Below are positions 10,937 through 63,575 of a stretch of DNA of 64,000 nucleotides, in pieces. The DNA comes from Thermoleophilia bacterium (GTDB taxonomy: Bacteria; Actinomycetota; Thermoleophilia; BMS3ABIN01), in contig JAGVMV010000006.1 in NCBI GenBank assembly GCA_020053595.1, forward strand, positions 49,325 to 113,324, in the 5' to 3' direction. The position numbers were made by a program, and so were the translations under genes. The first letter of the stretch is position 1. Each line of letters opens with the position of its first letter. The notes under the pieces are model-generated. The model made no database searches, was not told the DNA's origin, and saw only the letters and a list, made by a program, of their open reading frames with translations.

Positions 10937-11884
10937 ATGATGACAGATGGATATATTCGACCCAAGGAGCTTGAATTGGGTTCCCTGCTCGGCAGGTTCT
11001 TCCTTTTGCTTTTTCTTATGATGATTCCGTTGGCGGGCGCGGCCTGTTCTGACGGTGAAAGCTTGCCGTTTTCTCCGGGCACCGTTTCAACGTCCACATC
11101 CGCGGACCTCCGTATCTCCATAGCTGGCATGTTCACCCCGAAGGAAACCTACTCGATTTATTCGGATCTGCTCGATTATATTGGTGAAAAGACCGGGCGC
11201 TCAACCATCCTGCAGCAGACCGGCAGTTATTCGAGTGTAAACGACCTGTTGGCACGCAAGGAAACTGACTTCGCGTTCCTGTGTTCTGGGGGTTACGTGG
11301 AGGCCTCTCATCATATGGGCCTGGTTCCTCTGGTGGCACCAGTGGTCAATGGGCAGCCGCTTTATTATTCCTATATCCTCGCTCGTGAGGGCAGTGGCAT
11401 TCAAAAATTCGAAGATTTTCGTGGCCGCCGCTTTGCCTTTGGCGATCCCCTGTCGCTGACCGGCACTCTGTATCCAATGTCGCTTATAAAACTCTCGGGC
11501 AACGGGTTGGACAGTTTTTTTGGAGATTACATTTACACCAACAACCACGACAATTCCATTAAGGCCATGATGGAAGGTGTGGTGGACGGGACAGCTGTCG
11601 ACAGTTTTATTTTTGACTACCTGAAGGCGCGTAATCCGGCCAGTGTCGCGGGGCTGGTGATAATTGAGAAATCACAGCCTTTCGGCTCGCCGCCCATTGT
11701 TGCTCGCCCGGGGCTACCGAAAGATTTGCGTGACCAGCTGATTCAAGTCCTCGTGGGGATGCAGGACGATCCCAAAGGCAGGGAAATCCTTACGCAGCTG
11801 GGAATCGAACGGTTTGTCCAGGTAGATGAATCTCTTTACGAGTCGGTTGAGCAACTGGAGGCGGAAATGACAATCCGTCAGTAA
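10937..11884 (+). CDS. PhnD/SsuA-like periplasmic substrate-binding lipoprotein (sensor accessory?)
   Basis: Signal peptide with a lipobox-like LAGAAC, and an ABC phosphonate/sulfonate-binding-like fold. Sits directly upstream of a histidine kinase gene. Confidence 0.65.
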   Translation: MMTDGYIRPKELELGSLLGRFFLLLFLMMIPLAGAACSDGESLPFSPGTVSTSTSADLRISIAGMFTPKETYSIYSDLLDYIGEKTGRSTILQQTGSYSSVNDLLARKETDFAFLCSGGYVEASHHMGLVPLVAPVVNGQPLYYSYILAREGSGIQKFEDFRGRRFAFGDPLSLTGTLYPMSLIKLSGNGLDSFFGDYIYTNNHDNSIKAMMEGVVDGTAVDSFIFDYLKARNPASVAGLVIIEKSQPFGSPPIVARPGLPKDLRDQLIQVLVGMQDDPKGREILTQLGIERFVQVDESLYESVEQLEAEMTIRQ

Positions 11885-14597: not shown

Positions 14598-14751
14598 GTA
14601 CTAGTTTGCGGGATAAGGAGGTGGAGGCGAACGGCATATATCATCAAGACCGCGGAAGAGGAGTGTTCGTCCGGCGTGGATTCCAGGTCAAGCACTCAGA
14701 CATATAACGAAAAACAAGTTCAATTGGGAGGTGAAGGAATTGAGATTTAAG

Positions 14752-15654
14752 ATGAGCCTAAAGAAGAAGGTTATTGCAATATCAATGTTGGCGGCGTTGC
14801 TTACGTTCGTCATTGGACTGAGCGCAATCTTCGCTTCTTCAGCGCCCCCGGCGAGTCCTCACTATAGTTATAGCGAGTGCACCGCCTGTCATTCGGATCA
14901 GATCGATTACCACAGCACTGCATCCAGCCATCAATACTCGGAGTGCATCTCCTGCCATGGCGATCGCACGGACGAGCAATCCCTTTACGACGCTTCTTAC
15001 GGTCAGTATTTTGATGGTCCGCACAAGGTGCACCTGACCTCCAGCCAGCTTTCGTTTACCTGTACCCAGTGCCATGAATCAGTGGATATCAGGGAAAAGT
15101 CCGCGGCTTCAGTCAGGCGACAGGTATCGATGGAGTGCTCCAAGTGCCACAGTCCCTTCCCGACATCAATGAATCCTGCATGGGCCACGCAGGACTGCAC
15201 GACATGTCACACGGACTGGCAGAGCAGCCATTCATCCGATCCCTCGATCAACACGGCGAATATCGCACCAGCCGACTGCATTGGTTGCCACGGAGGAAGA
15301 TCCTGGTACCTGTCGGGTATGGCTTCGGCTAGTCTGGCCAGAGGCAACACCTACTGGGCCAGCTATGACGACTACTCGGCCAGAAAACTGTCGGTCGACT
15401 TCTCTATCTCGAACAGCGGTTCGGGAACGGCAAACGGTTTGAACTTATCCAACGTTCTGTCTACGAACGGAGTGGGCGCGATAACGACGTTGCCACTGTC
15501 TCTTGGGGATCTGTCGCAGGACACCGCCGCCGATTTCACGATGGTGTATTCGGTGCCGAATGGAGTCGGATCCTTCAGGACTTCACTGTACGCCAATGCT
15601 ATAAATGACGACGATCAGACGCAATACTGGCCTTCACCGCCGCCCTCTCCCTGA
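14752..15654 (+). CDS. secreted hexaheme c-type cytochrome with a C-terminal non-heme beta-rich domain and a Pro-rich tail
   Basis: N-terminal signal/TM segment and six CxxCH motifs (CTACH, CISCH, CTQCH, CSKCH, CTTCH, CIGCH). A ~120-aa Ser/Gly/Asn-rich domain follows and the protein ends in PSPPPSP. A GTG at 14731 is an alternative start. Confidence 0.8.
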   Translation: MSLKKKVIAISMLAALLTFVIGLSAIFASSAPPASPHYSYSECTACHSDQIDYHSTASSHQYSECISCHGDRTDEQSLYDASYGQYFDGPHKVHLTSSQLSFTCTQCHESVDIREKSAASVRRQVSMECSKCHSPFPTSMNPAWATQDCTTCHTDWQSSHSSDPSINTANIAPADCIGCHGGRSWYLSGMASASLARGNTYWASYDDYSARKLSVDFSISNSGSGTANGLNLSNVLSTNGVGAITTLPLSLGDLSQDTAADFTMVYSVPNGVGSFRTSLYANAINDDDQTQYWPSPPPSP

Positions 15655-15705
15655 GGCGGAAAGAGCGAAGCTCTGAAAAGCCAAAACGGGAAAAGGAGCG
15701 GTATC

Positions 15706-15861
15706 GTGATAGCGAAAGGTAAGAAAACAGACAAACAGGAAAAAAGGCGCAAGGCCTACGCGAAGCCGGAACTGGCAATGCACGACAACTTGAAGGATAT
15801 AACCTTCGAGTGCCAGGCCTGGCAGTGCAGCGTTGTAGTGCCGCCGCCTCCGGAGCACTAG
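15706..15861 (+). CDS. small ORF (51 aa), Lys-rich N-terminus with a C-terminal CxxxC-VVVPPPPEH
   Basis: GTG start preceded by AAGGAG at 7-nt spacing. Lies between the cytochrome and the molybdoenzyme gene. It is absent from the ORF track only because it is shorter than 60 aa. Confidence 0.35.
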   Translation: MIAKGKKTDKQEKRRKAYAKPELAMHDNLKDITFECQAWQCSVVVPPPPEH

Positions 15862-15944
15862 GAGAAAGCAAATGCGTCGGAATGACAGAAATAATAAAGC
15901 GCAGCATCAAATGCGCTGGAAGCCAAGCGAAAGAGGTGAGCTAA

Positions 15945-18557
15945 ATGACAGATGAAAGCAGCAAGGGCGGTAGCCTTGAAATAAACCCAAGCGTCTCACG
16001 CCGTTCCTTTCTGAAATGGGGAAGCGCCATCAGCGGCACGGCGGTAGCCAGCGTTCTGATGCCTGGCGGTCTCCTCAAGCAGGTCTTCGGTACCGGCACG
16101 GCCAAGGCCGCCGATGAAGGCAGCTGGATCTATACCGCCTGTAACATGTGCGGCGGTCAATCCGGCATCAAGGTGAACGTGATCGACGGCGCCGTCAGGA
16201 AGATCGAGCCCAGCGAATACAATGCCGCAAGCATCGCCAACACCTGCCTGAACGACCCGGCGGACCCGGCCGACTTCCTGAACAACTGCGCCGGCAGCGG
16301 TTGGGGCGGCACCATGTGCCCCAAGGGCAACTCGGCGATCAAGTCACTGTATGACCCGGATCGCGTCCTGATGCCCATGAAGCGTGATCCGGCCTCTCCA
16401 AGGGGGGAGGGAGCAGTGTTCAACCCGATCTCCTGGGACGACTGCCTCAATGAGATCAAGATAAAACTGCAGGACCTAAAGGCTGAGCAGAGCGGCAACG
16501 GCGCCCATCAGCTCCTCTGGTTCGGGGAGGATCACTCCTTTACCCATATCCAGCAGGACTTCATGAAATGCTACGGGTCGTCGAACTACATGAACCACTC
16601 CAACCTCTGCGACACCAGCCGCAAGAGGAACTATAGCGTGCCTCTCGGCGACGAGCGGCCGCTGGCGGACTTCGCCCATGCCAAGTACGCCATGCTCTGG
16701 GGCTGGAATCCCCTGTCGGCCATCAAGTGGGCGCACCTGCCCCGCATTATCAGGCAGTTCTTTGACAATGGCGGGCGCATGGTCTGCGTCGACCCGGTCT
16801 TCAGCCACACCGCCGCGACAGCCTGCCGCAACGGCGGCGAGTGGGTGCCGCTCAAGCCCGGCACGGACGGCGCCATGGCTCTGGCGATGGCGTACGTTAT
16901 CATCAACGAGAGCCGTTACGACGCAGCCTTCGTCTCCAGCTATGTCCTCGGATTCAACGAGTATAAGGACTATGTGAACGGAGTCAGCGACGGAACGCCC
17001 AAGACGCCCGCCTGGGCTGAGACCAAGACCGGCGTACCCGCCGCGACCATCGAGCGGCTGGCCCGTGAGCTGGCCGATCCGGCCAACCACCCGGCAGTCA
17101 TCGATATCTGGTCCGGACCCGGCCAGCACACCAACGCGACCCAGGGCGGTCGCGCGGTTACCGCCCTCCTGGCGCTCACCGGCCAGATCGGCGGCAAGGG
17201 CCAGATGGTGTACCCGAACAAGAAGGGCTCGAAGCACCGCACCATGACCAACACGCACGACACCGGCGCCGGCAAGTCGCTGGCGAGGCCGAGGGTCGAC
17301 GGTTATAACTTGTCCAAGGCCTCCGGTGGATATCCATCGGCACACAGTTCAGGCATCTATGTCCGGGCCCGTGACGTAATGCTCGATTCGGACCTGTCGC
17401 CCGCGGCCTACTGGGCCAAGTACCCCTACCTGGGCGCCACTGAGGCCGAGGCTGACACCAACCGCCCCAAAGCGGTAATGTTCATGTTCCAGAACTGGGT
17501 GATGTCGATTCCCAACACGCAGAAGAACATCGACGCCATCAACAAGATGGACCTGGTCATCTGCTGCGACACCCATCTCAGCGAGACCGCCCAGATGGCC
17601 GACTACATCATCCCGGGTTCCCATGCCCTGGAGCGCTACGACTACAACTCCAACTGGGTGACCCACTACAGCCTGAGTCTGCGGCAGCCGGTGGTAAGCT
17701 CCTGGATCGGCAACCCCTACCGCTTCGAGGCCGGGGTTCTCATGGAACTGGCCACCAGAATGGGTCTGGCCGGCGACGCCGGCAGCACCTCTCCGGGCAA
17801 CTTCAGCATGACCTACGAGCAGTTCCTGGGTCAGGAGCTCCTGGGTGACTCGACCCTGAAGGCCAGCATCCACCCGACTGGAGATCTCACCAACATGGCG
17901 GACTGCGACACGGCTTTGAACAACTTCAAGGCGTTGCCGGGAGTGCATTGGCCATCCCCGACCGAGCTGGCCGCGAATGTCGCCAGCTGGGGCACCAAGT
18001 ATGGCAAGAAGAGCAAGCTGATGCAGGGCAGCGCGGAGAAGATAGTCCTGAACTCCGCCAGCATCTACGACAACGGTGTCGCGGGCACCGGCATCACCGG
18101 CTATAAGTCACTGCAGACTGCCGGTTACGACGCGCTTCCGAAATATGCCGATCCGGAAGACTCGCCGGCGAACAATCCCGGTTATCCCCTCCATCTGGTC
18201 AACTGGAAGCAGGTCGAGCACACGCACTCGCGGACGTTCAACAACGTGTGGCTCATGGAGATGAAGGGGCATAACCCGCTCTACATCAACACGGCGACCG
18301 CCGCCAGCCTGGGCATCGTCGATGGCGACGCCATCAAGGTGGAATCGCCTTACGCGACAGTTGACGCCACGGCCTTCGTCACCGAGGGCATCGAGCCGAG
18401 CACCGTGGGCATGTTGCACGGTTTCGGGCACACGGCGCTGGGAGAGGTCGCCAAGGGCAAGGGCACGTCGGACGGCGCGCTGCCGGCCGGCAAAGCCGAA
18501 TCTATTTCCGGCCAGGCAATCCATAAGGAGACGGCCGTGAAAGTCTACGGGGCCTAG
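15945..18557 (+). CDS. Tat-exported molybdopterin oxidoreductase catalytic subunit (CISM family; substrate unknown)
   Basis: Twin-arginine signal (SRRSFLKWGSAISGTAVAS), molybdopterin oxidoreductase and dinucleotide-binding domains, 870 aa. The N-terminal Cys spacing is atypical (C-x2-C then distant Cys residues). Confidence 0.88.
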   Translation: MTDESSKGGSLEINPSVSRRSFLKWGSAISGTAVASVLMPGGLLKQVFGTGTAKAADEGSWIYTACNMCGGQSGIKVNVIDGAVRKIEPSEYNAASIANTCLNDPADPADFLNNCAGSGWGGTMCPKGNSAIKSLYDPDRVLMPMKRDPASPRGEGAVFNPISWDDCLNEIKIKLQDLKAEQSGNGAHQLLWFGEDHSFTHIQQDFMKCYGSSNYMNHSNLCDTSRKRNYSVPLGDERPLADFAHAKYAMLWGWNPLSAIKWAHLPRIIRQFFDNGGRMVCVDPVFSHTAATACRNGGEWVPLKPGTDGAMALAMAYVIINESRYDAAFVSSYVLGFNEYKDYVNGVSDGTPKTPAWAETKTGVPAATIERLARELADPANHPAVIDIWSGPGQHTNATQGGRAVTALLALTGQIGGKGQMVYPNKKGSKHRTMTNTHDTGAGKSLARPRVDGYNLSKASGGYPSAHSSGIYVRARDVMLDSDLSPAAYWAKYPYLGATEAEADTNRPKAVMFMFQNWVMSIPNTQKNIDAINKMDLVICCDTHLSETAQMADYIIPGSHALERYDYNSNWVTHYSLSLRQPVVSSWIGNPYRFEAGVLMELATRMGLAGDAGSTSPGNFSMTYEQFLGQELLGDSTLKASIHPTGDLTNMADCDTALNNFKALPGVHWPSPTELAANVASWGTKYGKKSKLMQGSAEKIVLNSASIYDNGVAGTGITGYKSLQTAGYDALPKYADPEDSPANNPGYPLHLVNWKQVEHTHSRTFNNVWLMEMKGHNPLYINTATAASLGIVDGDAIKVESPYATVDATAFVTEGIEPSTVGMLHGFGHTALGEVAKGKGTSDGALPAGKAESISGQAIHKETAVKVYGA

Positions 18558-18575
18558 AAAGGAGGGTGATTTAAC

Positions 18576-19127
18576 ATGGCTGCAAACCCCAATCAGCTCG
18601 GCTTTGAATACGATATGGTCAAATGTATCGGATGCAGGGCCTGCGAGGGAGCGTGCAAACAGCAGAACAACGTGGAGTTGGGAGTGCGTTTTCGGAGGGT
18701 GACCACTTTTAACGGCGGCACCTACCCGACTCCGTTCACCAACTACATGTCGATGGCGTGCAACCACTGTGAAAAGCCCGCCTGTGCGGCGGCTTGTCCG
18801 GTGGACGCGATCACCAAACGGGCCAGCGATGGCATCGTCATCATTGATAACAACAAGTGCAACGGATGCAAGCTGTGCATGGAGGCTTGTCCCTATGGTG
18901 CTCCACAGTATAACCCCGTGACCAAAAAGGTGGAGAAGTGCCATATGTGCTACACGCGCATCGACGCCGGCCTGTCTCCAGCCTGTGTGCAGACCTGCAT
19001 GGCGCGAGTGCTCAAGCATGGAGTGCTGTCAACACTGACAGGTGACAAGGGCAAGAACGTAGCCCACTTTGCCAATCCCAAACACACGCACCCGTCGATA
19101 CGGATTTCCCCGCCCGACAGGCAATAA
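18576..19127 (+). CDS. 4Fe-4S ferredoxin-type electron-transfer subunit (DmsB/PsrB-like)
   Basis: Four Cys clusters, including CxxCxxCxxxC-type motifs (CIGCRACEGAC, CNHCEKPACAAACP, CNGCKLCMEACP). Confidence 0.9.
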   Translation: MAANPNQLGFEYDMVKCIGCRACEGACKQQNNVELGVRFRRVTTFNGGTYPTPFTNYMSMACNHCEKPACAAACPVDAITKRASDGIVIIDNNKCNGCKLCMEACPYGAPQYNPVTKKVEKCHMCYTRIDAGLSPACVQTCMARVLKHGVLSTLTGDKGKNVAHFANPKHTHPSIRISPPDRQ

Positions 19128-19136
19128 GGAGTAAAA

Positions 19137-19781
19137 ATGGAAGCTCTGGACAACAAGATAATGGACAATGATACACGGACACGGATTGTTGTCTATGACT
19201 TCCTGAGGCGTGTGTTTCTGCACGAACCCACGGATGAGTTCTTCGGGCGCCTGGTTGAGAGTGGCATACTCGAGGATCTAAACGACCTGCCCGGCATCGA
19301 GAAGATGCGGTCTTATGTGCAATCGGCCCTCTCTTCCGGAGATATCGATGCAGTGCGGCAGGACTTCTACCAACTGTTCCTGGGACCCAGGCGTCTGAAG
19401 GCTCCCCCGTGGGAATCGGTTTACCGGTCGGAATTACGGCTGGTAAATCAAAAATCGACAACCGAAGTGCGGCAACTGTACGCGCGATTCGGGTTTGAGA
19501 CTGAAGCCGGCCAGCTGGAAGACCACTTCGGCACGGAATGTGACTTCCTCTTCAGGTTGTGCAGCCTCTTGGGAGTGATCGACAAGCACGGGCGGTACGA
19601 TCTCCTGGGCGTCCAGAAGCGCTTCATCGGGGATCATCTGCTTAAATGGGTGCCCGGGTTCGCGGAAGACATCATGAAAAACGCGCTTACCGATTACTTT
19701 CGTGGGCTAGGAGAGTTCGTGGGCTATTGGGTGCGCAATGAAGAAGAATACCTGGACACAGTGTGGTCTGAAAGCAAATGA
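19137..19781 (+). CDS. TorD/DmsD-family redox-enzyme maturation chaperone
   Basis: Conserved EDHFGTECDFL (E-x-DH) motif of the TorD family at about 210 aa, and an operon position after the catalytic and FeS subunits. Confidence 0.75.
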   Translation: MEALDNKIMDNDTRTRIVVYDFLRRVFLHEPTDEFFGRLVESGILEDLNDLPGIEKMRSYVQSALSSGDIDAVRQDFYQLFLGPRRLKAPPWESVYRSELRLVNQKSTTEVRQLYARFGFETEAGQLEDHFGTECDFLFRLCSLLGVIDKHGRYDLLGVQKRFIGDHLLKWVPGFAEDIMKNALTDYFRGLGEFVGYWVRNEEEYLDTVWSESK

Positions 19782-19829
19782 TGCATCAGTAGGGTCTGGA
19801 ATATTAAATGGAAAGACAGGTGAATTAAA

Positions 19830-20060
19830 ATGCCAAGCATAGGATGGCAGGAACTGGTTGTAGTCTTGGTGATAGCATTGATGATATTCGGTACCAAGCG
19901 TTTGCCCGAAGTTGGTCGTTCGATGGGCAGTGCCTTGAAGGAATTCAAAGCGGGGACTCAGGAAATAAAAGGAAAAACGAGCATTCGAGCGGAAGCGATC
20001 GCAGTTGAGCCGAAAAGCGTTGCCGCTGAGCCGAAAAGCGATGCCATCGAAACAATCTGA
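19830..20060 (+). CDS. tatA: twin-arginine translocase TatA/E
   Basis: N-terminal TM helix followed by the amphipathic GTKRLPEVGRSMGSALKEFK helix, 76 aa. Confidence 0.85.
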   Translation: MPSIGWQELVVVLVIALMIFGTKRLPEVGRSMGSALKEFKAGTQEIKGKTSIRAEAIAVEPKSVAAEPKSDAIETI

Positions 20061-20231: not shown

Positions 20232-20633
20232 ATGTGTGAGTCTCCAAAAAACAGAGCGATGGAAATACGGTCAAAAATCTGGATTGAAATCGATGGCAAG
20301 TGTGTGTTCAGCAAGGGGCGGGTAATCCTGCTCGAGGCCATCGAGCGGTATGGCTCCATAAACCGGGCCGCCGCCGAAACCGGTATTTCCTACCGGCGCG
20401 CGTGGGGGTACATCAAAGCCATGGAGAAAAGGCTGGGAATGGATCTGGTGGAGACGAAAACGGGAGGAGCTGGAGGGGGAGGCGCGACGCTCACTGACGA
20501 AGCGCGCCGCTTTCTGCTTGATTATGAGAGTCTGGAATCCGGCATCAACGAGCTTGTGGATAAGCGTTTCGGTGACATCTTCAAGGCTCAAAAAACCGCT
20601 AAAGTCGGGCGGCGTTATGCAAATTTGTCATAA
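20232..20633 (+). CDS. ModE N-terminal domain-like winged-helix regulator (no TOBE domains)
   Basis: ISYRRAWGYI...TGGAGGGGATLT matches the ModE HTH signature TGGKGGGGAxLT. Confidence 0.7.
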   Translation: MCESPKNRAMEIRSKIWIEIDGKCVFSKGRVILLEAIERYGSINRAAAETGISYRRAWGYIKAMEKRLGMDLVETKTGGAGGGGATLTDEARRFLLDYESLESGINELVDKRFGDIFKAQKTAKVGRRYANLS

Positions 20634-20662: not shown

Positions 20663-21712
20663 ATGTGTGAAGTAGGCCAGGAAATAATATCTGTGAGGGA
20701 AGCCGTGGGCACTGTGTTGAGCCACGATATAACCGAGGTGAACCCGGCGAACGGCTTCAAAGGGGCACGGTTCCACCGGGGGCACGTTATCACGGAAGAG
20801 GACGTGGAGAAGCTTCTCGATCTGGGCAAGGAGCATCTGTATATCCTCGAAATTCGCGAAGATCAGATGCATGAAAACGACGCTGCGCAGATGATGGCGA
20901 CGGCGATAGCTGGTGAGAATGCGGTGTTCATACCGGAGCCTTCCGAGGGGAAAATAAATATCAGGGCCGCGGTGGATGGACTACTCAAGGTGGACGTCGC
21001 AGCGTTGGAAAGTTTTAACGGCGTCGGCGCGGTGATGTGCGCGACCCGTCACAGCAATACCGTTGTGAAGCAGGGTGATGTCATAGCAGGAACGCGCGCC
21101 ATTCCCCTCGTGGTTGATGAGAAGCCGGTGCGCGATGCAGTCGCGATCGCCGCCGGGGCGGGAGGCATTGTATCTGTCCTGCCGTTAAAGCAGGCCCGGG
21201 TGGCACTCGTAATCACGGGCAACGAAGTATACAAGGGTCGTATCAAGGACGCTTTTGAGCCGGTGATCAGGAAGAAGGTCGAGGATCTCGGCTCTACAGT
21301 CGTGGAGGTCGTTAAATGCCCGGACAATGTGGGAGTGATCAGGGCAGCTCTGGAGCAGGTGAAGAGCAATCAGGCCGATCTTGTCGTCATGACGGGTGGG
21401 ATGTCGGTCGATCCCGACGACGTTACTCCGCTGGCGGCGGGCGCGGCGGGCGCGGAGATTACCGCTTATGGTTCAGCGGTGCTTCCCGGGACGATGTTCA
21501 TGGTCGGCTACTTCAAGAATGGCACACCAGTGCTGGGCGTGCCCGCCTGCGGGATTCATCACCCGCGCACAATATTCGATCTCGTGCTACCCCGGGTGCT
21601 CGCAGGGGAAACAATCACTGACAAGGACATAGCCCGGCTCGGCCACGGTGGCATGTGTCTCGATTGCCCTGAGTGCAGATTTCCTGTTTGTCCATTCGGT
21701 AAGGGCTCATGA
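20663..21712 (+). CDS. MoeA-like molybdopterin metal-insertion protein (MoCF_biosynth domain), no MoeA C-terminal domain, Cys-rich tail
   Basis: VALVITGNEV, GGMSVDPDD and PGTMFMVG resemble the MoeA VALFSTGDEL, GGVSVGEAD and PGKPFAFG motifs. C-terminal CLDCPECRFPVCPFGK. This is paralog A; paralog B is at 31656. Confidence 0.65.
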   Translation: MCEVGQEIISVREAVGTVLSHDITEVNPANGFKGARFHRGHVITEEDVEKLLDLGKEHLYILEIREDQMHENDAAQMMATAIAGENAVFIPEPSEGKINIRAAVDGLLKVDVAALESFNGVGAVMCATRHSNTVVKQGDVIAGTRAIPLVVDEKPVRDAVAIAAGAGGIVSVLPLKQARVALVITGNEVYKGRIKDAFEPVIRKKVEDLGSTVVEVVKCPDNVGVIRAALEQVKSNQADLVVMTGGMSVDPDDVTPLAAGAAGAEITAYGSAVLPGTMFMVGYFKNGTPVLGVPACGIHHPRTIFDLVLPRVLAGETITDKDIARLGHGGMCLDCPECRFPVCPFGKGS

Positions 21713-21721
21713 AGAGTTGTC

Positions 21722-22342
21722 ATGAAGACGCTTGAGGAACATCTTGCCGAAACTGCGGCCTTCCATGGGAGCAACTGTCCGGGTCAGACGCTGGGCGTCA
21801 GGATGGCCCGGGCCGGCCTGACGCGGATCGGCATCGACGATCCGCTTTCCGGCCGCTGGCGAAAGCAGCTCATGGTTTACGTGGAAATAGATCGTTGTGC
21901 CGCCGATGCGGTGATGAGCGTGACCGGGTGCCGTGTGGGTAAACGAACGCTCAAAATCGTGGACAATGGCATCATGGCAGCCGGCTTCCTGAACCTGGAA
22001 ACTGGCAAAGCAGTCCGGGTAGTGGCCCGCGAAAAAGCACGGGCCCTGGCCGACAAATATGCGCCGGGAATCGAAGACAAGTACGAGCGTCAACGGAAGG
22101 CCTATGAAGTCATGCCCGACGAGGAGTTGTTCGATTTCGAGGACGTCAAGATCGTGGTCCCGGGTCAGGACATGCCCGGCAGTCCTATTTCGCGGGTGCA
22201 ATGCAGCAAATGCGGTCATTCGGTCCAGGACTTGCGGGAAGTGTGGCAGCCAGGTCTCATCTTCTGCAAGCCATGCGCCCAGGGGAGCTACTTCACAGCG
22301 ATCAACCGCTGCGATCCGGAACCGGAGGCGACCTCGGTATGA
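21722..22342 (+). CDS. FmdE/FwdE-family protein with C-terminal zinc ribbon
   Basis: FmdE-like N-terminal domain (HGSNCPGQTLGVRMA) and a C-x2-C...C-x2-C ribbon (CSKCGH...CKPCAQ). Confidence 0.75.
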   Translation: MKTLEEHLAETAAFHGSNCPGQTLGVRMARAGLTRIGIDDPLSGRWRKQLMVYVEIDRCAADAVMSVTGCRVGKRTLKIVDNGIMAAGFLNLETGKAVRVVAREKARALADKYAPGIEDKYERQRKAYEVMPDEELFDFEDVKIVVPGQDMPGSPISRVQCSKCGHSVQDLREVWQPGLIFCKPCAQGSYFTAINRCDPEPEATSV

Positions 22343-23577
22343 CGCCTGCGGCTCTTTCTAATATAAACGGAACAACCATGCCGGCGTTCATTTTCAGCAG
22401 GCGGGAAATTGCCGGTGCGCTGGGCGATATCGGGGTACTGTTGCCGTTGATGGCGGGGCTGATTCTCGTATCCGGCCTTTCCGCGTTCACGGTTTTCCTG
22501 CTCACGGGGGTGACATATCTTGCCGCGGGCATATATTTCCGTTTGCCGGTGCCGGTTCAACCTCTCAAGGCCATGGCCGCCATTGCCATAGCCGGTGGCG
22601 CCGGCGCCGAGGAACTGGCAGCTGGTGGCATCATCATGGGGGTGTTGCTCTTGTTCCTTGGCATGACCGGCCTGGCCTCGAAACTTACAAGACTTTTTTC
22701 TCCCTGGACAGTCAAGGGGATACAGTTGGCGGTGGGGCTGATGTTGATCAAGGCCAGTATTCCCTTCATCACTGGCGGTGGCTCGGCGGTCTGGAAGGCA
22801 GCCGCGGTATCTGGGCCGACAGGATCGGCGGCCCTGTTGCTGGCGGGAGTCTCTCTGATATTGCTGTTACTTTTCAATCAAAGCCGGAAGGTTCCCGCTT
22901 CCCTTGCCGTGCTGGCTCTGGGCTTCACGTTGAGTCTCATCCTCGCTGGCCCAGCCATCATCGGCTCACTTGAGGTGTCTGGGCCGGCGTTGCCTTCCAT
23001 TTCAATCCCCGGACGGGAGAGCTTTATCGCGGCCCTTTTCCTGCTGGTTATTCCACAGGTGCCGGTTACTTTTGGTAACTCGGTGATCGCTACGACCGAC
23101 GTGGCCCATTCCTATTTCAAAAAGAGAGCAGAGCGGGTTACACCCAAAGCGCTTTGCGCTTCGCTGGGAATTGCCAACACAGCCATCGGCCTGCTAGGCG
23201 GCATGCCGGTCTGCCATGGCTCCGGCGGCATGACTGCGCACTATCGCCTCGGCGCCCGTTCCGGCGGCGCGGCTGTGCTCATGGGGGTACTGCTCGTATC
23301 CCTGGCTCTGCTGTTCGGCGACTCCGCGGTCTATCTGATACTCATGCTGCCCCTGCCGCTTCTGGGAGCATTCATAATTTATGTGGGGATTGAACACGCG
23401 CGCCTGGTACTTGAGCTACTTGAACACAAGCTCTCCCTGTTGGTCGCTGTGGCCATAGGGGTGTTGTCGCTTCTTTGGGGCAATATTGCGGTAGGCATGG
23501 TAATAGGGATTGGGGCCAGCCTTATTGCCGGCGCCGCCGGGTTGTTCAGAGAATATTTGTTGCCAGGTGAAAATTAA
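22339..23577 (+). CDS. MOT1-family (sulfate-permease-like) molybdate transporter
   Basis: EIAGALGDIGVLLPL and GGMPVCHGSGGMTAHYRLGARSGG match the two MOT1 signature motifs. About 12 TM helices. ATGA overlap with the upstream stop. Confidence 0.65.
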   Translation: MTPAALSNINGTTMPAFIFSRREIAGALGDIGVLLPLMAGLILVSGLSAFTVFLLTGVTYLAAGIYFRLPVPVQPLKAMAAIAIAGGAGAEELAAGGIIMGVLLLFLGMTGLASKLTRLFSPWTVKGIQLAVGLMLIKASIPFITGGGSAVWKAAAVSGPTGSAALLLAGVSLILLLLFNQSRKVPASLAVLALGFTLSLILAGPAIIGSLEVSGPALPSISIPGRESFIAALFLLVIPQVPVTFGNSVIATTDVAHSYFKKRAERVTPKALCASLGIANTAIGLLGGMPVCHGSGGMTAHYRLGARSGGAAVLMGVLLVSLALLFGDSAVYLILMLPLPLLGAFIIYVGIEHARLVLELLEHKLSLLVAVAIGVLSLLWGNIAVGMVIGIGASLIAGAAGLFREYLLPGEN

Positions 23578-23611: not shown

Positions 23612-24808
23612 ATGGCTGGAACAGGCAAAATCAATAACTCAGCGGGGAAACGGGATTTCTCGGTTGCGATTCTGGCTGGTGGTGAAAGCAGCCGCATGGG
23701 CAAGAACAAGGCGCTGGAGATCCTGGGGGGCAAGACGGTCATCGCCCACGTTATCGATTCTCTCCGGCCCCTCACCAATGACATGTTTATCGTGGCGGGT
23801 GATGTGGCGGCTTACGAGGGGTTCGGGCTACCCATCTGCGCCGACCATTACGATTTCCGGGCGTCTCTGGTGGGCATTTATTCCGCCATCGCCTCCTCGC
23901 GGGAGGAACGATGCCTCGTTGTCGCCTGCGACATGCCGTTCGTGGAACCCGCCCTTGCCCGTCTGTTGGCCAGCCTTTCCGCGGGATACGATGCCGTTGT
24001 GCCGGTGAGCCCGCGCGGCTGGGAGCCCCTCCTGGCCGTCTATTCGAAATCATGCCTGAAAGCAATGCGGGAACGGATAAAGAGCGGAGACCTTGCGATC
24101 CATCATGTGCTGGATAACCTGAAGGTCAGATATGTAGAGCTGGCGGAGATGGCTGTCTGCTGCGACCCCGCACTGGTCTTCATCAATATCAATAACGTGG
24201 TGGAGCTTGAAAAGGCCAATCTGCTGGTTCCCAGAGTCCGCAAATTTCGCCGACAGACCGGGTCAGCGGCAGGGAAAAACGGCTCGCCTCCGCTGGTGTG
24301 CTTTGTAGGTAAAAAGAATTCAGGCAAGACCACCTTCCTGGAAAAGCTCGTGCGGGAGCTGATATCCAGAGGGTTGACCGTGGCATATATCAAGCACGAT
24401 GTTCATGGTTTTGAAATGGACCGCGAAGGGACAGATACCTGGCGCTTGACGCAGGCGGGAGCGCATTCGGTGATGATTTCTTCTCCCTTCGCGATGGCGT
24501 CTTTGGAAAAGGTTGGGGAGGAAAAAAATCTTGACGAGTTGGCGAAGCGGGTGGATGGTTCCGCGGACATCATCGTCGTCGAAGGCTTCAAGTGCGCCGG
24601 CGCCGACAAGCTGGAGGTATCCCGCAGCGCGCGGAGCGATTCCCTGGCCTGTTCTGAAGATGAATTATTGGGGATTATTTCGGATCGCGAGGAAGCAGCC
24701 AGCGGCCTTCCAGTATTTGCAATCGATGATATTTCCGGCGTCGCGGACTTTCTTGCTGACCATTACGAGTTTGACGCCGGTCGGAAGGATGGGGAAATTG
24801 GCTTCTGA
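23612..24808 (+). CDS. mobA: molybdenum cofactor guanylyltransferase MobA fused to MobB
   Basis: MobA N-terminus (LAGGESSRMG, DMPF) and a MobB P-loop (GKKNSGKTT). Confidence 0.8.
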   Translation: MAGTGKINNSAGKRDFSVAILAGGESSRMGKNKALEILGGKTVIAHVIDSLRPLTNDMFIVAGDVAAYEGFGLPICADHYDFRASLVGIYSAIASSREERCLVVACDMPFVEPALARLLASLSAGYDAVVPVSPRGWEPLLAVYSKSCLKAMRERIKSGDLAIHHVLDNLKVRYVELAEMAVCCDPALVFININNVVELEKANLLVPRVRKFRRQTGSAAGKNGSPPLVCFVGKKNSGKTTFLEKLVRELISRGLTVAYIKHDVHGFEMDREGTDTWRLTQAGAHSVMISSPFAMASLEKVGEEKNLDELAKRVDGSADIIVVEGFKCAGADKLEVSRSARSDSLACSEDELLGIISDREEAASGLPVFAIDDISGVADFLADHYEFDAGRKDGEIGF

Positions 24809-24866
24809 ATCAGGAAAAAACAGGGGTTTTGATCGTGGCAAGGGCCATGACGCTCAAGCATTTCAT

Positions 24867-25802
24867 GTGATCGACTATCTGCGTATATCCATTACCGATC
24901 GCTGCAATTTCCGCTGCGCTTACTGCATGCCGCGAGCGGGGGTGGGCTATCGGCCCCACGACGAGATTCTCAGTTATGAGGAAATCATACGGTTCACTCG
25001 CGCGACCGCGAGACTGGGAATCACCCGGGTCCGCATAACCGGAGGCGAACCGCTGGTTCGGCGGCAATGTCCGGAGCTGGTGGCGAAATTGGCGGCGATA
25101 CCCGGCATCGAGGACCTGTCGCTGACCACCAACGGCGCTCTGTTGACCGAGCACGCCGAGGCTCTCAGGGATGCCGGCCTTTCCCGCCTCAATATAAGTA
25201 TTGACAGTCTGAATCCGGACCGGTTTTCACGGATTACGCGGGGAGCTACTCTGGCGCCGGTGCTGGCAGGCCTGGAGATGGCACTGGAGCTCGGTTTTGC
25301 GCCGGTAAAGGTGAATGCCGTCATGATACCTGGCATTGAGGACGAGCTCGAACAGTTTGTTGCTCTGGCACGAGAAAATCCCGTGCACGTCAGATTCATT
25401 GAATTCATGCCTATCGGGTGCCACCAGGAGGATGTCCGGAATTTCATTTCCAGACAAAGGATTCTTGAAGGTTTGTCCAGATTTGGAGATTTAATGCCTG
25501 TCGATTCGCCCGTCGGCGGCGGTCCGGCGCGCTACTTCCGATTCGATGGCGCCCGCGGGACTATCGGATTTATCAGCTCCATGAGTGACCACTTCTGCGA
25601 AAACTGTAACCGTCTGCGGCTGACAGCGGACGGTAAGTTGCGCAACTGTTTATTCTCTGACGACGAAGTTGACATACGTCCTTATATAAACGGAGACTCG
25701 ATGGAACTTGCGAAAGTTATTATTGACTCCATGAACAGCAAGAAATTCGATCGGACTGGCGAGAAACCGTTGGCACGTACCATGTCACAGATTGGTGGAT
25801 AA
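24867..25802 (+). CDS. moaA: GTP 3',8-cyclase MoaA (radical SAM)
   Basis: YLRISITDRCNFRCAYCMP and a C-terminal Cys cluster (CENCNRLRLTADGKLRNC). The start is uncertain: GTG at 24867 is the first in-frame start after the mobAB stop. Confidence 0.85.
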   Translation: MIDYLRISITDRCNFRCAYCMPRAGVGYRPHDEILSYEEIIRFTRATARLGITRVRITGGEPLVRRQCPELVAKLAAIPGIEDLSLTTNGALLTEHAEALRDAGLSRLNISIDSLNPDRFSRITRGATLAPVLAGLEMALELGFAPVKVNAVMIPGIEDELEQFVALARENPVHVRFIEFMPIGCHQEDVRNFISRQRILEGLSRFGDLMPVDSPVGGGPARYFRFDGARGTIGFISSMSDHFCENCNRLRLTADGKLRNCLFSDDEVDIRPYINGDSMELAKVIIDSMNSKKFDRTGEKPLARTMSQIGG

Positions 25803-25878
25803 TTAACTTTCAGCCAATATGCCTGATCTTCGCAGGCTTGTCCAGACGAATAAACGAGGGGCGGAAGGGAATGATTTT

Positions 25879-26343
25879 ATGAAAAAAGAACTGTCGCACA
25901 TCGATAAAGAGGGAAGAGCGCGCATGGTTGACGTGGGCGACAAACCGGTGACGGTCCGCACCGCCCGTGCCGCCGGGCTCGTGACCATGGCTCCGGAAAC
26001 GATGCGTCTCTTGATTGACCGGGAGATTCCAAAGGGCGATGTCCTCTCAGTGGCGCGAGTAGCGGGCATCATGGCCGCAAAGGAGACTTCCCGGCTCATT
26101 CCCATGTGCCATCCGCTGGCAATAGAAAATATCAAGGTCGACTTTGAGATCGAGGAAGAGGTGCCAGCCGTGAATATCGAGGCGATTGTGCGCGTTTCCG
26201 GCAAGACTGGCGTGGAAATGGAGGCCCTCACGGCCGTGTCCATGGCCGCGCTCACTATCTACGACATGTGCAAGGCCGTGGATAAAGGAATGGTTATCAG
26301 CGACATCCGGTTGCTGGAAAAGCATGGAGGTAAGTCAGGATGA
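25879..26343 (+). CDS. moaC: cyclic pyranopterin monophosphate synthase MoaC
   Basis: [14 protein letters not shown]...CHPL...[11 protein letters not shown] with an upstream GGAAGGGA. Confidence 0.85.
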
Positions 26344-26786
26344 TGGCGTCGATAGTCTCAATTAACATTTCCACCGCCAAGGGCGAACGAAAAAAACCGG
26401 CTGGCCAGGCGGAGCTGCTGGTGGAGCATGGCATCGTTGGCGACGGGCATGCGGGCAACTGGCACCGGCAGGTCAGCCTGCTGGCGGCGGAAAGCATCGA
26501 GAAGATGAAGAAAAAGGGCCTCGACGTTGGTCCCGGCGATTTCGCTGAGAATGTGACAACCAGCGGTATCGATTTGCCGGTACTGCCCATAGGTACGAGG
26601 CTGAAACTGGGTGGTACACTAGTCGAGGTGACCCAGATCGGCAAGAAGTGTCACAACCGCTGTGAGATTTACAGGCAGGCAGGCGATTGCGTTATGCCAA
26701 GAGAGGGTATTTTTGTGAAGGTGATTGAAGGCGGCAACATTGCTGATGGAGATGCGATCGATTTACTGGAGGAGGTGGGGGAATGA
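26340..26786 (+). CDS. MOSC-domain protein
   Basis: MOSC beta-barrel signature (GDGHAG...GENV...G), 148 aa. Confidence 0.75.
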
Positions 26787-27274
26787 GTTTCACCGCCGCC
26801 GTTATTACTGTCAGCGATAAAGGCGCTAACGGCGAGCGTAAAGACGAGAGCGGTGACGCTCTTGAGCGTTTGCTGATCGATGTGGGAGCTGTATCGGTGG
26901 CGAGGGTCATGGTCCCCGACGAACGCGATCAAATCTCCGCTGTATTACGTGAATATTGTTGTGAAAAAAAAGTCGATCTTGTCATTACTACCGGCGGAAC
27001 CGGCCTGACAACAAGGGACGTCACTCCGGAGGCTACCCGGGACGTCATCGACCGTGAAGCGCCGGGCATCGCCGAAGCCATCCGCGCTCAATCGATGAAG
27101 ATAACCCCGCGGGCGATGCTCTCCCGGTCGGTGAGCGGCGTTTGCGGCGAGTCGCTGATCATCAACTTTCCTGGCAGCCCCAAAGCCTGCGCTGAATCTT
27201 TTGCCGTTGTCAGGCCGGTTCTCGGCCACGCCCTGGAGTTGCTGGGGGGAGCCGGCGGGGAGTGCGCCCGCTGA
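26783..27274 (+). CDS. mogA: molybdopterin adenylyltransferase MogA/MoaB
   Basis: AVITVSDKG...ITTGGTGLTTRDVTPEAT. Confidence 0.85.
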   Translation: MSFTAAVITVSDKGANGERKDESGDALERLLIDVGAVSVARVMVPDERDQISAVLREYCCEKKVDLVITTGGTGLTTRDVTPEATRDVIDREAPGIAEAIRAQSMKITPRAMLSRSVSGVCGESLIINFPGSPKACAESFAVVRPVLGHALELLGGAGGECAR

Positions 27275-27535
27275 TGACCTCGTAGAAGACATCCCTGCTA
27301 ATCAGATATATTTAGCCGGCACCCCTTGCATTTGAAAAAACTATTCTGATATTCTTGCTCACAGAGGTGTGACTGGCGTTCAGTGGATAACCACTCGGGA
27401 GCATCTCCGCTGGTGTCAAAAAAACCAGCCGATTGGCCGGACGCCTGGGCCTCCAGATAGCTTGGATGGCTTGGGTGTTTTTTCATCCCCGGAGCCTTCA
27501 ACCGGACTGTTCGCCGTTGTCAGAAAGGGAATAAA

Positions 27536-30500
27536 ATGGCCGATCTACCTCATCACGAAATCATCGCGGAAAGCGGCCCCCTGGTCAAACTTTTCATCGA
27601 TGGCCGCCGTTTGCAGGTCAACCCCCGCATGACCATCCTGGAAGCCGCGCACGCGAACAGCATCGAGATACCTACCCTTTGCAATGACCCCCGTCTCGCG
27701 CCCGTCGGCAATTGTGGCCTGTGCCTGGTGGAGGTCGTCGAAACCGGCCTGGTGTACGCCTGTCAGACCCCCGTGGCCGAAGGCATGGAGGTCACCACCC
27801 TTAACCCGGAGATCGCCGAGGCGCGCAAACAAAGACTCACCGAGTATCTGACCAGCCACAACGCCTATTGTGAACCGCCCTGCCATAACGCGTGCCCGGC
27901 GCGCATCGATATTCCCGCCTACCTGGCGGCGATCGCCCGGGGGGATGACGCCGAAGCGATCAGGATCATCAAGCACCGGCTGCCATTGCCGCGCATAATC
28001 GGCCGGGTTTGCCCGCGCCCCTGCGAGAGCGCCTGCCGCCGTACCCAGGTTGATCAGGAACCGGTTGCCATCTGTCAGCTGAAGCGTTTCGCCAGCGACA
28101 GCGTCAGCGCCGCCGGCTCCGCGAGCATTGAAGAGCCCGCCGCATCCAGCGGCAAAAAAGTCGCCGTCATCGGCAGCGGCCCATCCGGCCTCTCCGCCGC
28201 CTATTACCTGGCTTTGAGCGGCCACCAGGTCACTATCTTCGAAGCTCATTCAGAACCAGGCGGTATGATGCTGACCGGTATTCCGCCCTACCGCCTGCCG
28301 CGGGAGATCATCCAGGCGGAAGTCGAAGACATCCTTAAAACCGGTGTCGAATTGAAGCTGAACAGCCGCTTCGGCAAAGATATTACTTTCGAAAGCCTGG
28401 AGTCCGATGGCTACGCGGCTACTCATCTGGCCATCGGCGCCCAACGGGGCTCGACCGGTGGTATCCCCGATGCAGGAGAGGGACAGGGCATCTATTCCGC
28501 CGTCGATTTTCTCCACAAAAGCAACGCCGGGCTATGGGACGCTCCCCTGGGCAAAACGCTGGTCGTGGGCGGTGGTTTCACCGCCCTGGATGCCTGCCGG
28601 TCTTCAATCCGGCTAGGCGCCGATGAAGTCACCGTGGTCTACCGCCGCTCCCGTAAAGAGATGCCGGCGACCGCGGACGAGGTCGAGGAGGCCGAACTGG
28701 AGGGCGTCAGGCTTTCGCTGCTCACCGCGCCGATCTCTGTTGTCCGCGAAGACGGCAAGGTAACCGGTGTCGTTTGTCAGACGATGGAGCTGGGCGAGCC
28801 CGACGACAGCGGCAGACGCCGCCCCGAAGCAGTGGAGGGTTCCGAGTTCACCATCGAGGCGGATACGGTCATCCTGGCCATCGGCCAGGAGGTCGACCAG
28901 TTCGGACTGGAAGACTCTCTGGATCTGAGCGGTTGGGGCACCATCGAGGCCAACCAGCGCACTCTGGCGACCAGCAGGGATGGAATTTTTGCCGGGGGCG
29001 ACTGCGAAACCGGCCCGGCTACAGTCGTTGAAGCCATCGCCGCCGGCCGCAGGGCCGCGGTTGCCATCGATGCATATATTAACGGCAAGGACCCCGATGA
29101 AGCCTGCTCAGCTCCCTCGGCCAGCCTCAAAAGACGCCGGCCGAAGCTGTTCGACATCGGCGCCAGGCCGCTTTCCGATGATAAACGGATCCATATGCCC
29201 GAACTCGCCATCGCCGACCGTGACAACTTCGATGAGATCGAGCTGGGTTTCGAGGAGAAGGCCGCCAGGAAAGAGGCCGCCCGCTGCCTGCAGTGTACCT
29301 GCCATGCTGTTTCCGCCTGCGAGCTGCAGCGCCTTTCCATCCGTTATGGCGCCGGCACCACCGAGTTTAAGGGCGAGGGCCAATATGAGCTTTACGATGG
29401 CTCGCCCATACTCCAGCTGGACCGCAAACGCTGCATCAAGTGCCACAACTGCGTCCGCATCTGCAACGAGCTGGAAATGAACAATGTTTACAGGGTAGAT
29501 GAAAATGGACATCCCGCCCTGCGGGGGAAAACCTATAAAGATTCCGGCTGCGTTTCGTGCGGACAATGCATCGACGTCTGCCCGACCGGCGCTCTGGTCA
29601 ACACTCAGCTGAAGGGTGTCCGTGAATGGGAGCTGGAAAGGGTGAGGACGACCTGCCCGCTCTGCGGCACCGGCTGTAATTTCGATCTGAACGTCAAGGA
29701 GGGCAGGGTCGTCGGGGTTACCACCAATGCGGATTCTCCGGTCAATAACCGCGCCCTCTGCGTCAAGGGCCGATATCACTCGGACTTGGTCCACAGCCCC
29801 GATCGCCTCACCACGCCGCTGGTCAGGAAAAACGGCAAGCTCGAGGAATCCACCTGGGATGAAGCCCTGGGCCTGGTGGCCTCGAGGCTTCAGGAGATAA
29901 AAGACCGGGACGGCGGCGATGCTTTCGCCGCCCTGAGTTCGGCCCGCTGTACCAACGAGGAAAACTGGGTGATGCAGAAATTTGTGAGGGCGGTGATGGG
30001 CACCAACAATCTCGACCATTGTGCCCGCACCTGACACGCTCCCACCGTGGCCGGTCTGGCCATATCGTTCGGCAGCGGAGCAATGACGAATTCCATCAAC
30101 GAAGTGGGATTCTACGACGCCCTGCTCATCATCGGCTCCAACGCCACCGAAGCGCATCCCATTATCGGGGGCAAGATGAAGCGTGCCGCGAGGCGCGGAG
30201 CCAGGATAATAGTGGCCGACCCCCGTCATGTAGAACTGGTCGATTACGCCGAGATCTGGCTGCGGCTCACCCCCGGCACTGACGCCGCGCTGGTCAACGG
30301 CATGATCAACATAATCATCAATGAAGGCTGGGCCGACCAGGAGTTCATGGAGGAGCGCTGCGAAGGTTACGACGCACTCTGGGAAGTCGTGCAGAAGTAT
30401 ACGCCGGCGATGGTCAGTGAAATCACCGGCGTCCCCGAGGACCAGCTCTACGCGGCGGCCGAGATTTATGCGCAGACGCCGAGGGCGGGCATCTTCTACA

Positions 30501-46875: not shown

Positions 46876-46878
46876 GCG

Positions 46879-48703: not shown

Positions 48704-48705
48704 CT

Positions 48706-51806: not shown

Positions 51807-54449
<2,643 letters not shown>

Positions 54450-62608: not shown

Positions 62609-62757
62609 TGGTTTTGTCCGCGATATCTTTCGCCGTAATTATTCTTGCGCGTGCTCCAGTATTTGTCAGGCTTGCAGAGTGCGCAGCTTGAGTAATATCG
62701 TCTGTGTTATTTCTTGTGGTTCGCCATGGATTAAACACTCAGAGTCTTTTCCACGCT

Positions 62758-63549: not shown

Positions 63550-63575
63550 ATATGAATCGTCGCTCTATAAAAAAC

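Follow-up and report, generated by a model that had tools for sequence, protein, structure and literature searches.

A MOT1-family permease in a bacterial molybdenum cofactor operon: a candidate route of molybdate uptake

We have analysed a stretch of DNA from a Thermoleophilia bacterium (contig JAGVMV010000006.1, assembly GCA_020053595.1; the whole stretch of 64,000 nucleotides is called the window here), in which the gene at 22339-23577 on the forward strand encodes a hydrophobic membrane protein of 412 aa. This permease lies among genes for the biosynthesis of the molybdenum cofactor (Moco). It is a prokaryotic member of the MOT1 family with the SLC26/UraA fold and without a STAS domain, and we consider it likely that it is a secondary transporter that imports molybdate, and possibly also tungstate, for the Moco synthesis of its operon. 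We base this reading on family membership, on the fold and the placement of the signature motifs in it, on the structure of the operon, and on the conserved molybdenum (Mo)-linked context of the relatives, each of which we document below.

Results

Family assignment and signature motifs

The permease gave one Pfam match only, to PF16983 (MFS_MOT1; E 4e-42, 143.5 bits against a cutoff of 30, in two stretches). Neither PF00916 (Sulfate_transp) nor STAS was found at E <= 0.01, nor was any other extra-membrane domain, and in an NCBIfam scan of the permease no model reached its own cutoff. An earlier note on this DNA, made from the sequence alone and called the original prediction here, had assigned the gene to the MOT1 family. 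The profile score agrees with that assignment, and the best profile matches did not fall among SulP permeases lacking the MOT1 motifs. An Arabidopsis MOT1 sequence, used only as bait, led to a 100% identical database protein of Arabidopsis thaliana (P0124, 456 aa), the orthologues of which carry the name 'molybdate transporter 1'. A BLASTP alignment of the permease with this protein spans 399 aa (residues 23-391) at 29% identity and E 1e-42. In a neighbour-joining tree, ten plant sequences formed one separate clade on a long branch (prokaryote-plant identity 25-33%), and the permease was placed in a prokaryotic sub-clade together with relatives that are 55-87% identical to it.

The motifs published for the family by the Chlamydomonas group are PXPVQPMKX(I/L)(A/G)AXA and FGXMPXCHG(S/A)GGLAXQ(Y/H)XFG(A/G)RXG (PMC10385300). 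In the permease, PVPVQPLK occupies residues 70-77, and MPVCHGSGG occupies residues 289-297 and is followed by MTAHYRLGARSG. Motif 1 is identical to the published consensus at 9 of the 11 specified positions, and the two remaining changes are conservative (M to L; I/L to M). Motif 2 keeps the core MPxCHG(S/A)GG and G(A/G)RxG intact and differs from the eukaryotic consensus at 5 of the 19 specified positions (F to L, L to M, A to T, Q to H at residue 301, and F to L). Both signature blocks that the original prediction had described are present, one in conserved block 0 and the other in the region of motif 2 (Table 1).

An alignment of 48 homologs showed invariant residues that include E23, D30, P36, P70, Q74, P75, K77, P290, C292, H293, G294, G297, H301, and G305. 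Of the other key residues of these blocks, some show conservative variation only, and some, such as P72, V73, and T299, reach a conservation of 90% or more. Considering that T299 and the invariant H301 are kept in this way across the aligned prokaryotic homologs, we suggest that they represent a prokaryotic variant of motif 2.

Predicted fold

An AlphaFold2 model of the permease was built on the alignment of 48 homologs (mean predicted local distance difference test score, pLDDT, 89.7; predicted template modelling score, pTM, 0.89). The chain forms 14 helices and ends 5 residues past the last of them. Two short elements, each made of a strand and a half-helix (residues 73-86 and 291-303), coincide in the model with motifs 1 and 2. 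When the model was compared with the PDB by Foldseek, all of the top 50 matches were 7+7 inverted-repeat transporters (prestin, SLC26Dg, SLC26A6, BicA, UraA, AtSULTR4;1, and AZG1/2), with E-values down to 1e-11, TM-scores of about 0.6-0.7, and identities of 12-19%. This match to SLC26/SulP shows relatedness at the level of the superfamily only. In the SLC26/UraA fold, the substrate is bound between the N-termini of the half-helices of transmembrane helices (TM) 3 and 10. From the fold, motifs 1 and 2 would both be located at this substrate site. No solved structure of the MOT1 family was found in the PDB by sequence or by fold.

The inverted repeat of the permease is assigned because of the fold match only; when its N-terminal and C-terminal halves were compared as profiles, no significant similarity emerged (probability 2%). 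A major facilitator superfamily (MFS) fold of 6+6 helices, which the Pfam name MFS_MOT1 implies, was rejected because the model has 14 helices and MFS proteins account for 0 of the 50 best PDB matches.

Separately, we observed that the motif 2 region (window 23098-23247, residues 254-303, …GGMPVCHGSGGMTAHYR) aligns weakly with residues 50-99 of the nitrogenase MoFe-protein beta subunit (…MPYVHGSQGCVAHFR), with E 0.04 against PDB sequences and E 0.0018 against TIGR01286. This likeness to NifK was dismissed as chance or convergence, probably chance, since it is short and below every threshold and NifK is a soluble protein.

Relatives in other prokaryotes

Relatives of the permease are encoded by at least 584 stretches of species-representative genomes, both bacterial and archaeal; Chloroflexota, Desulfobacterota, Actinomycetota, Calditrichota, and several lineages of archaea are among the sources. 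When 1.84 billion cluster representatives were searched with a profile, 4044 members were returned at E <= 0.001, each representing a cluster at 50% identity, and 961 at E <= 1e-30. Considering these numbers, the label 'eukaryote-type' that the gene had been given is misleading.

The full gene order around the permease is preserved in relatives at 65% identity (metagenome contig L001) and 67% identity (L087), and in both of them the FmdE and MOT1 genes overlap at their junction. The neighbours of the homologs were surveyed at 81 loci, comprising contig L001 and 80 loci from species-representative genomes. At 18 of these loci, genes for Moco biosynthesis are no more than 3 kb away from the homolog, and some Mo-linked neighbour is present at 25. 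There were 44 Moco-gene matches inside 3 kb (35 of them on the same strand as the homolog) and 4 beyond, which corresponds to 1.03 versus 0.054 per 10 kb, or about 19-fold. In a Pfam census of 134 directly adjacent open reading frames (ORFs), the most frequent domains were MoCF_biosynth (9) and the molybdate-binding TOBE domain (8). A protein combining Phage_integrase and TOBE adjoins the MOT1 homolog at five Desulfobacterota loci (Table 1). The tungstate-responsive TunR regulators of Desulfovibrio are built in this way.

Several relatives are joined to the cofactor pathway more directly. In a Calditrichota metagenome-assembled genome (MAG; L077), a Moco riboswitch (71.8 bits) lies 5' of moaA-MOT1-moaC-moeA-MOSC. 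A Nitrososphaeria archaeon encodes a MOT1-MoeA fusion of 812 aa with a complete MoeA (NIN51938.1; cluster P0458, L083 2545-4983), which is found on 2 contigs and has genes for a TorD-like protein, MobB, and MobA on its flanks. MOT1-MoaA fusions of 557-700 aa form three clusters (P0423, P0470, and P0411), one of which has 12 members on many contigs. Neither kind of fusion was mentioned in the papers searched. Additionally, a homolog that is 49% identical to the permease (P0014) is the last gene, 38 nt after nifB, of a nifD-K-E-N-PII-PII-nifB cluster (L088 1-7732), in which nifK and nifE score above their equivalog cutoffs. Its position suggests that this homolog may supply molybdate for the iron-molybdenum cofactor (FeMo-co) of nitrogenase. 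The context of the relatives ties the prokaryotic family to both Mo-using pathways, that of the pterin cofactor and that of FeMo-co.

Several homologs of Desulfobacteraceae precede a gene for an ABC ATPase on the same strand (L053 11310-13165, L062 5828-6814, L028 11650-12675, L033 7338-8336, and L030 9316-9918), and at L053 the ATPase is followed by an ABC-2-type permease of the exporter type. Matches to E. coli ModC beside the homologs were not accepted as ModC, since they are generic ABC ATPase matches and several belong to ABC-2 systems of the exporter type.

The operon and the start of the permease gene

A Pfam scan covered about 60 ORFs of the entire 64-kb window, and the genes around the permease are collected in Table 1. 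Between 20633 and 27274, the genes are separated by gaps of 0-34 nt or overlap. A consensus scan of this region found one terminator-like site on the forward strand, a weak one with 3 G-C pairs at 22624-22649, within the permease gene. Because of the tight gaps and overlaps and this single weak site, one operon is the simplest reading. The original prediction had placed the permease inside a Moco biosynthesis operon, directly before mobAB and coupled to the FmdE-like gene by an ATGA overlap. These points held: the context is real and kept in the relatives at 65-67% identity, the MobA-MobB fusion starts at 23612, 34 nt past the permease stop, and the overlap can be read directly at 22339-22342, where the ATG at 22339 overlaps the TGA (22340-22342) that ends the FmdE-like gene.

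The translation given here starts from the ATG at 22339. An alternative start at Met14 (22378) matches a 399-aa member of the 90%-identity cluster of the permease (MHB9111157.1), as called by both NCBI and JGI. If Met14 is used in vivo, a gap of 35 nt replaces the ATGA overlap. We favour 22339 because of the Shine-Dalgarno sequence and because the FmdE/MOT1 junctions of relatives L001 and L087 also overlap.

In the MoeA-like protein, MoeA_N and MoeA_C were not detectable, and its tail has the form CLDCPECxFPVCPFG. The two-gene module of MoeA-like and FmdE-like genes is also present in Nitrospirae MAGs that have no MOT1 gene (L084-L086), and a fusion architecture of FmdE with PF00994 is mentioned in PMC2954224. 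The pair may be a metal-insertion or maturation module. In a tblastn search with E. coli ModE, only residues 21-92 were matched by the helix-turn-helix (HTH) gene at 20232-20633.

Table 1. Coordinates of the permease gene, its motifs, and the neighbouring genes (window positions unless a locus is named)
Feature	Coordinates	Strand	Remarks
Start region of the permease gene	22324..22342	+	GGAGG Shine-Dalgarno 22324-22328, 10 nt 5' of ATG; ATGA start/stop overlap 22339-22342; read from sequence
MOT1-family permease	22339-23577	+	PF16983; 14 predicted TM helices, no STAS
Conserved block 0, EIAGALGDIGVLLP	22405..22446 (residues 23-36)	+	TM1 start; plant MOT1 counterpart ELNGAMGDLGTYIP
MOT1 motif 1, PVPVQPLKAMAAIA	22546..22587 (residues 70-83)	+	In the model, short strand + half-helix (E73-75, H77-86), corresponding to TM3
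MOT1 motif 2, LGGMPVCHGSGGMTAHYRLGARSG	23194..23265 (residues 286-309)	+	In the model, short strand + half-helix (E291-293, H295-303), corresponding to TM10
ModE N-terminal-type HTH regulator without Mop/TOBE	20232-20633	+	HTH_1; TIGR00637 ModE_repress 91.8 bits, cutoff 98.5; probable first operon gene
MoeA-like 'molybdopterin-binding protein', 349 aa	20663-21712	+	PF00994 (MoCF_biosynth) only domain; matches E. coli MoeA 130-322; Cys-rich C-terminus CLDCPECRFPVCPFG
FmdE-like protein, C-terminal C4 zinc ribbon	21722-22342	+	PF02663 E 1.8e-30, zf-dskA_traR; PDB 2gvi E 2e-5
MobA-MobB fusion (Moco guanylyltransferase + adaptor)	23612-24808	+	PF12804 + PF03205; NF011056 311.8 bits, best model, cutoff 379
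MoaA (GTP 3',8-cyclase)	24798-25802	+	TIGR02666 359 bits; probable TTG start 24798 overlaps mobAB end
MoaC	25819-26343	+	Profile searches
MOSC-domain protein	26340-26786	+	Profile searches
MoaB/Mog-type protein	26783-27274	+	Profile searches
Multihaem cytochrome c	14731-15654	+	Upstream client module (14731..20060)
Oxidoreductase alpha subunit, Tat-exported (twin-arginine translocation), Mo-bisPGD (bis(pyranopterin guanine dinucleotide))	15945-18557	+	Signal SRRSFLK; PhsA/DmsA-like
FeS beta subunit	18576-19127	+	Upstream client module
TorD/DmsD-type chaperone	19137-19781	+	Upstream client module
TatA	19830-20060	+	Upstream client module
Protein with N-terminal Phage_integrase-like domain + two TOBE (molybdate/tungstate-binding) domains, about 360-370 aa	L022 7254-8375; L045 8035-9147; L051 2064-3149; L060 7699-8778; L068 8674-9792		Beside MOT1 homolog

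Formate dehydrogenase and a second MoeA-like/FmdE-like pair

A formate dehydrogenase gene is located at 27536-31663 (+), 4 kb downstream of the permease, and encodes an alpha subunit fused to 2Fe-2S, flavin/NAD-binding, and 4Fe-4S domains. It contains an in-frame TGA at 30032-30034, within ...DHCART*HAPTVAGL..., and the selenocysteine insertion sequence model SECIS_3 matched at this TGA (element 30029-30087; 43.7 bits, below the cutoff of 63, E 3e-7). From these features, it is very probable that the TGA is read as selenocysteine, which gives an enzyme of about 1375 aa. A ZMP/ZTP riboswitch (RF01750, 53 bits, cutoff 39) was found at 27359-27457 (+), about 80 nt 5' of the formate dehydrogenase gene, and would tie formate oxidation to folate and one-carbon status. 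On the 3' side of the formate dehydrogenase, a second pair of MoeA-like and FmdE-like/zinc-ribbon genes lies at 31641-33321 (+) and is 71-72% identical to the pair at 20663-22342.

Molybdate and tungstate ABC transporters in the window

The Pfam scan found no component of ModABC, TupABC, WtpABC, or a sulfate ABC importer among the roughly 60 ORFs of the 64-kb window. In tblastn searches of the window, E. coli ModA and ModB gave nothing, and ModC matched only a MacB-type ATPase, which belongs to the sole ABC system of the window (MacB/FtsX type, 46879-49207). The original prediction had stated that no ABC-type molybdate or tungstate transporter is visible, and both searches bear this out within the 64 kb; a nearby modABC operon, which would have spoken against the original prediction, did not turn up there. 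A Phosphonate-bd binding protein is encoded at 10937-11884, and because a histidine kinase and a LytTR response regulator come next, it fits a sensory role and not a transport role.

Other features of the window

At 56-967 and elsewhere along its length, the window encodes a sigma-54 enhancer-binding protein, multihaem cytochromes of the c7/c3 type, and a desulfoferrodoxin. To our knowledge, such gene content is unusual for Actinomycetota. 'Thermoleophilia bacterium' MAGs are the NCBI source label of the 399-aa cluster member and of several of the closest named homologs of the MoeA-like protein. An ORF of 136 aa at 46563-46973 (-), in partial overlap with the 3' end of the gene for the MacB-type ABC ATPase, matches only the D2-small domain at the C-terminus of ClpB; a full clpB is located at 51807-54449, and the short ORF could be what is left of a gene, or a domain that stands alone. 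The end of the window (61514-63771, -) is low in GC, about 0.51 versus about 0.59 elsewhere. Three tRNA genes are found there, along with genes for a ParE toxin and a restriction endonuclease of the Mrr type, and the region has the look of a small insertion, mobile or island-like, beside tRNAs.

Discussion

Proposed function

We infer the following scheme for what is transported and in which direction, for the source of energy, and for any hand-over of the metal to the MoeA-like and FmdE-like proteins. The protein would act as a stand-alone 14-helix permease of the 7+7 inverted-repeat elevator type, moving molybdate inward across the cytoplasmic membrane, presumably by cation symport. The half-helices TM3 and TM10, which bear PVPVQPLK and MPVCHGSGG...H..R.GAR, respectively, would hold the oxyanion between their N-termini. 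The imported metal would feed the last Moco steps of the operon (modE-N, moeA-like, fmdE-like, MOT1, mobAB, moaA, moaC, MOSC, and moaB), and the resulting cofactor would go to the Mo-bisPGD oxidoreductase encoded nearby, which is exported by Tat, and to the selenocysteine formate dehydrogenase.

Several points weigh against this scheme. At 56 of the 81 homolog loci, about two thirds, there is no Mo-linked neighbour. A Moco riboswitch is absent from the window, both at the gathering threshold and at E <= 1, and from 18 loci with a stand-alone homolog. The local ModE-like regulator is without a molybdate-sensing domain, and the absence of ABC importers holds for the 64-kb window. The departures of motif 2, including Q to H at residue 301, could give a substrate preference that differs from that of eukaryotic MOT1. 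In the literature searched, we found no experimental study of transport by any prokaryotic MOT1-family protein.

A further point is that tungstate is possible as a substrate, because it blocks Chlamydomonas MOT1, so that the site can bind a tungsten (W) oxyanion (PMC10385300), and because the selenocysteine formate dehydrogenase is nearby. Tungstate is thus the main alternative substrate. In this case, the permease would be mainly a tungstate importer for a W-bis-pyranopterin cofactor, used by the formate dehydrogenase (4 kb downstream, with its TGA at 30032-30034 and SECIS_3 match of E 3e-7) and perhaps by the PhsA/DmsA-like enzyme. The second MoeA-like/FmdE pair 3' of the formate dehydrogenase would fit this, as would the lack of TupABC and WtpABC in the 64-kb window, the Phage_integrase+TOBE proteins adjoining Desulfobacterota homologs, and the name of FmdE, which comes from the operons of Mo/W formylmethanofuran dehydrogenase (PMC2954224). 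On the other hand, all characterised members of the family carry molybdate (PMC10385300, PMC9147641), one homolog belongs to the nif cluster of a Mo-nitrogenase, which uses Mo and not W, and a Moco riboswitch accompanies the Calditrichota homolog. Weighing both sides, we consider a mainly tungstate-importing permease unlikely.

The permease could also be a general sulfate or oxyanion permease of the SulP type that stands among Moco genes by chance and has no dedicated role in Mo or W supply. Many homologs bear the JGI label 'SulP family sulfate permease', the permease has the SLC26/SulP fold, a few homologs score weakly for PF00916, most homolog loci have no Mo-linked neighbour, and TauE/SafE sulfite-exporter genes make up 5 of the 134 adjacent ORFs. 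However, the permease itself has no PF00916 match at E <= 0.01 and no STAS domain, and its identity to solved SLC26/SulP structures is 12-19%, against 29% to AtMOT1. A chance placement also fits poorly with Moco genes that are about 19-fold denser beside the homologs than a few kb away, with the fusions to MoeA and MoaA, and with a gene order preserved at 65-67% identity. Considering the missing PF00916 and STAS matches together with these context statistics, a generic sulfate-permease role is unlikely, and we leave the placement by chance only a slim prospect.

The slightest prospect is that of molybdate or tungstate efflux or homeostasis, or of a protein serving mainly as the membrane anchor of a cofactor-maturation complex: SLC26-fold transporters can act as exchangers and the direction cannot be read from the sequence, plant MOT1.2 exports vacuolar molybdate and binds the insertase Cnx1 (PMC9147641), and ABC-2 exporter-type genes lie 3' of some Desulfobacteraceae homologs, whereas co-transcription with cofactor genes and fusion to the metal-consuming MoeA or the pathway-starting MoaA fit supply and not removal, and the homolog in the nif cluster points to supply as well.

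Prior knowledge and significance

That bacteria have putative MOT1 proteins has been stated in reviews (PMC10385300). Marietou et al. (2018) described PF16983 proteins of sulfate reducers as likely molybdate transporters (PMC5840216), and Kublanov et al. (2017) predicted a molybdate transporter in Cabys_2008 of Caldithrix abyssi, a PF16983 gene in a Moco locus behind a Moco riboswitch (PMC5317091). The 399-aa member of the 90%-identity cluster of the permease bears the NCBI name 'molybdate transporter family protein'. The original prediction had held that the genomic context gives a functional hint. The Mo-linked context is indeed real and conserved, but the hint itself had already been published for Cabys_2008 (PMC5317091), and the NCBI name exists. 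Because Pfam, the NCBI names, and one genome paper already contain the idea, the significance of our study is incremental. Its added value is the comparative evidence from fusions, nif linkage, and neighbour statistics.

In large comparative surveys of Mo use, MOT1 is still regarded as eukaryotic, and the prokaryotic transporters that are counted are ModABC, WtpABC, and TupABC alone. In the survey of Peng et al. (2018), 278 bacteria and 13 archaea were entered under 'no known transporter', and a 2026 Nature Communications paper refers to the 'restriction to eukaryotes' of MOT1. Together with its relatives, the locus speaks for a fourth route of Mo/W uptake in prokaryotes, an ATP-independent one. 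If this is true, censuses of Mo transporters and evolutionary dating would change. A wider conjecture, which we put forward tentatively and hold to be rather doubtful, is that prokaryotic MOT1 is the uptake route in many of the Mo users with 'no known transporter', and possibly also a physical relay that hands the metal to MoeA or to the MoeA-like/FmdE-like pair, the relay being an early form of the interaction of Arabidopsis MOT1.2 with Cnx1. If so, the archaeal MOT1-MoeA fusion and the overlapping fmdE-MOT1 genes would represent two forms of the same coupling.

Comparison with known systems

Plant and algal MOT1 proteins are molybdate transporters of nanomolar affinity without a STAS domain, and the transport in Chlamydomonas is insensitive to sulfate (PMC10385300, PMC9147641). 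Like Arabidopsis MOT1.1 (At2g25680) and Chlamydomonas MOT1, the permease belongs to PF16983, has four conserved blocks that include motif 1 and the core of motif 2, and lacks STAS. It is similar in length to Arabidopsis MOT1 (412 versus 456 aa), but the acidic loop insertion of the plant protein is absent from it. It also differs in motif 2: residue 301 is an invariant His in the 48 prokaryotic homologs where the plant motif has Gln, and the prokaryotic Thr-Ala stands where the plant motif has Ala-Gly. Unlike plant MOT1, the bacterial gene lies in an operon with Moco genes, and its transport function is a prediction.

Among prokaryotes, the closest parallel is Cabys_2008 of Caldithrix abyssi, likewise a PF16983 gene among moaA, moaC, moeA, and MOSC, an arrangement that is repeated in the Calditrichota MAG L077. 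The permease and the Calditrichota homolog are about 37% identical. On the one hand, the Calditrichota locus has a Moco riboswitch in front, which the window lacks. On the other hand, the window has the ModE-N-type HTH gene, the MoeA-like/FmdE-like pair overlapping the permease start, and the mobAB fusion.

With the SLC26/SulP transporters (SLC26Dg, BicA, prestin, and AtSULTR4;1), the permease would share the 14-helix 7+7 inverted-repeat fold and the substrate site at TM3 and TM10, as judged from the model. It is distinct from them in its identity of 12-19%, in having neither PF00916 nor a cytoplasmic STAS domain, and in the signature residues at the putative binding site. ModABC, WtpABC, and TupABC have the same presumed role in Mo/W supply and, like it, are often linked to genes for Moco and for ModE/TOBE regulators. 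However, these systems are unrelated to it in sequence, architecture, and energetics, since they are driven by ATP and use a periplasmic binding protein. In Sedimenticola (L029), a MOT1 homolog comes right after genes for an ABC permease, which is weakly ModB-like, and an ABC ATPase. Because of this arrangement, we consider that the MOT1 and ABC types of importer may coexist.

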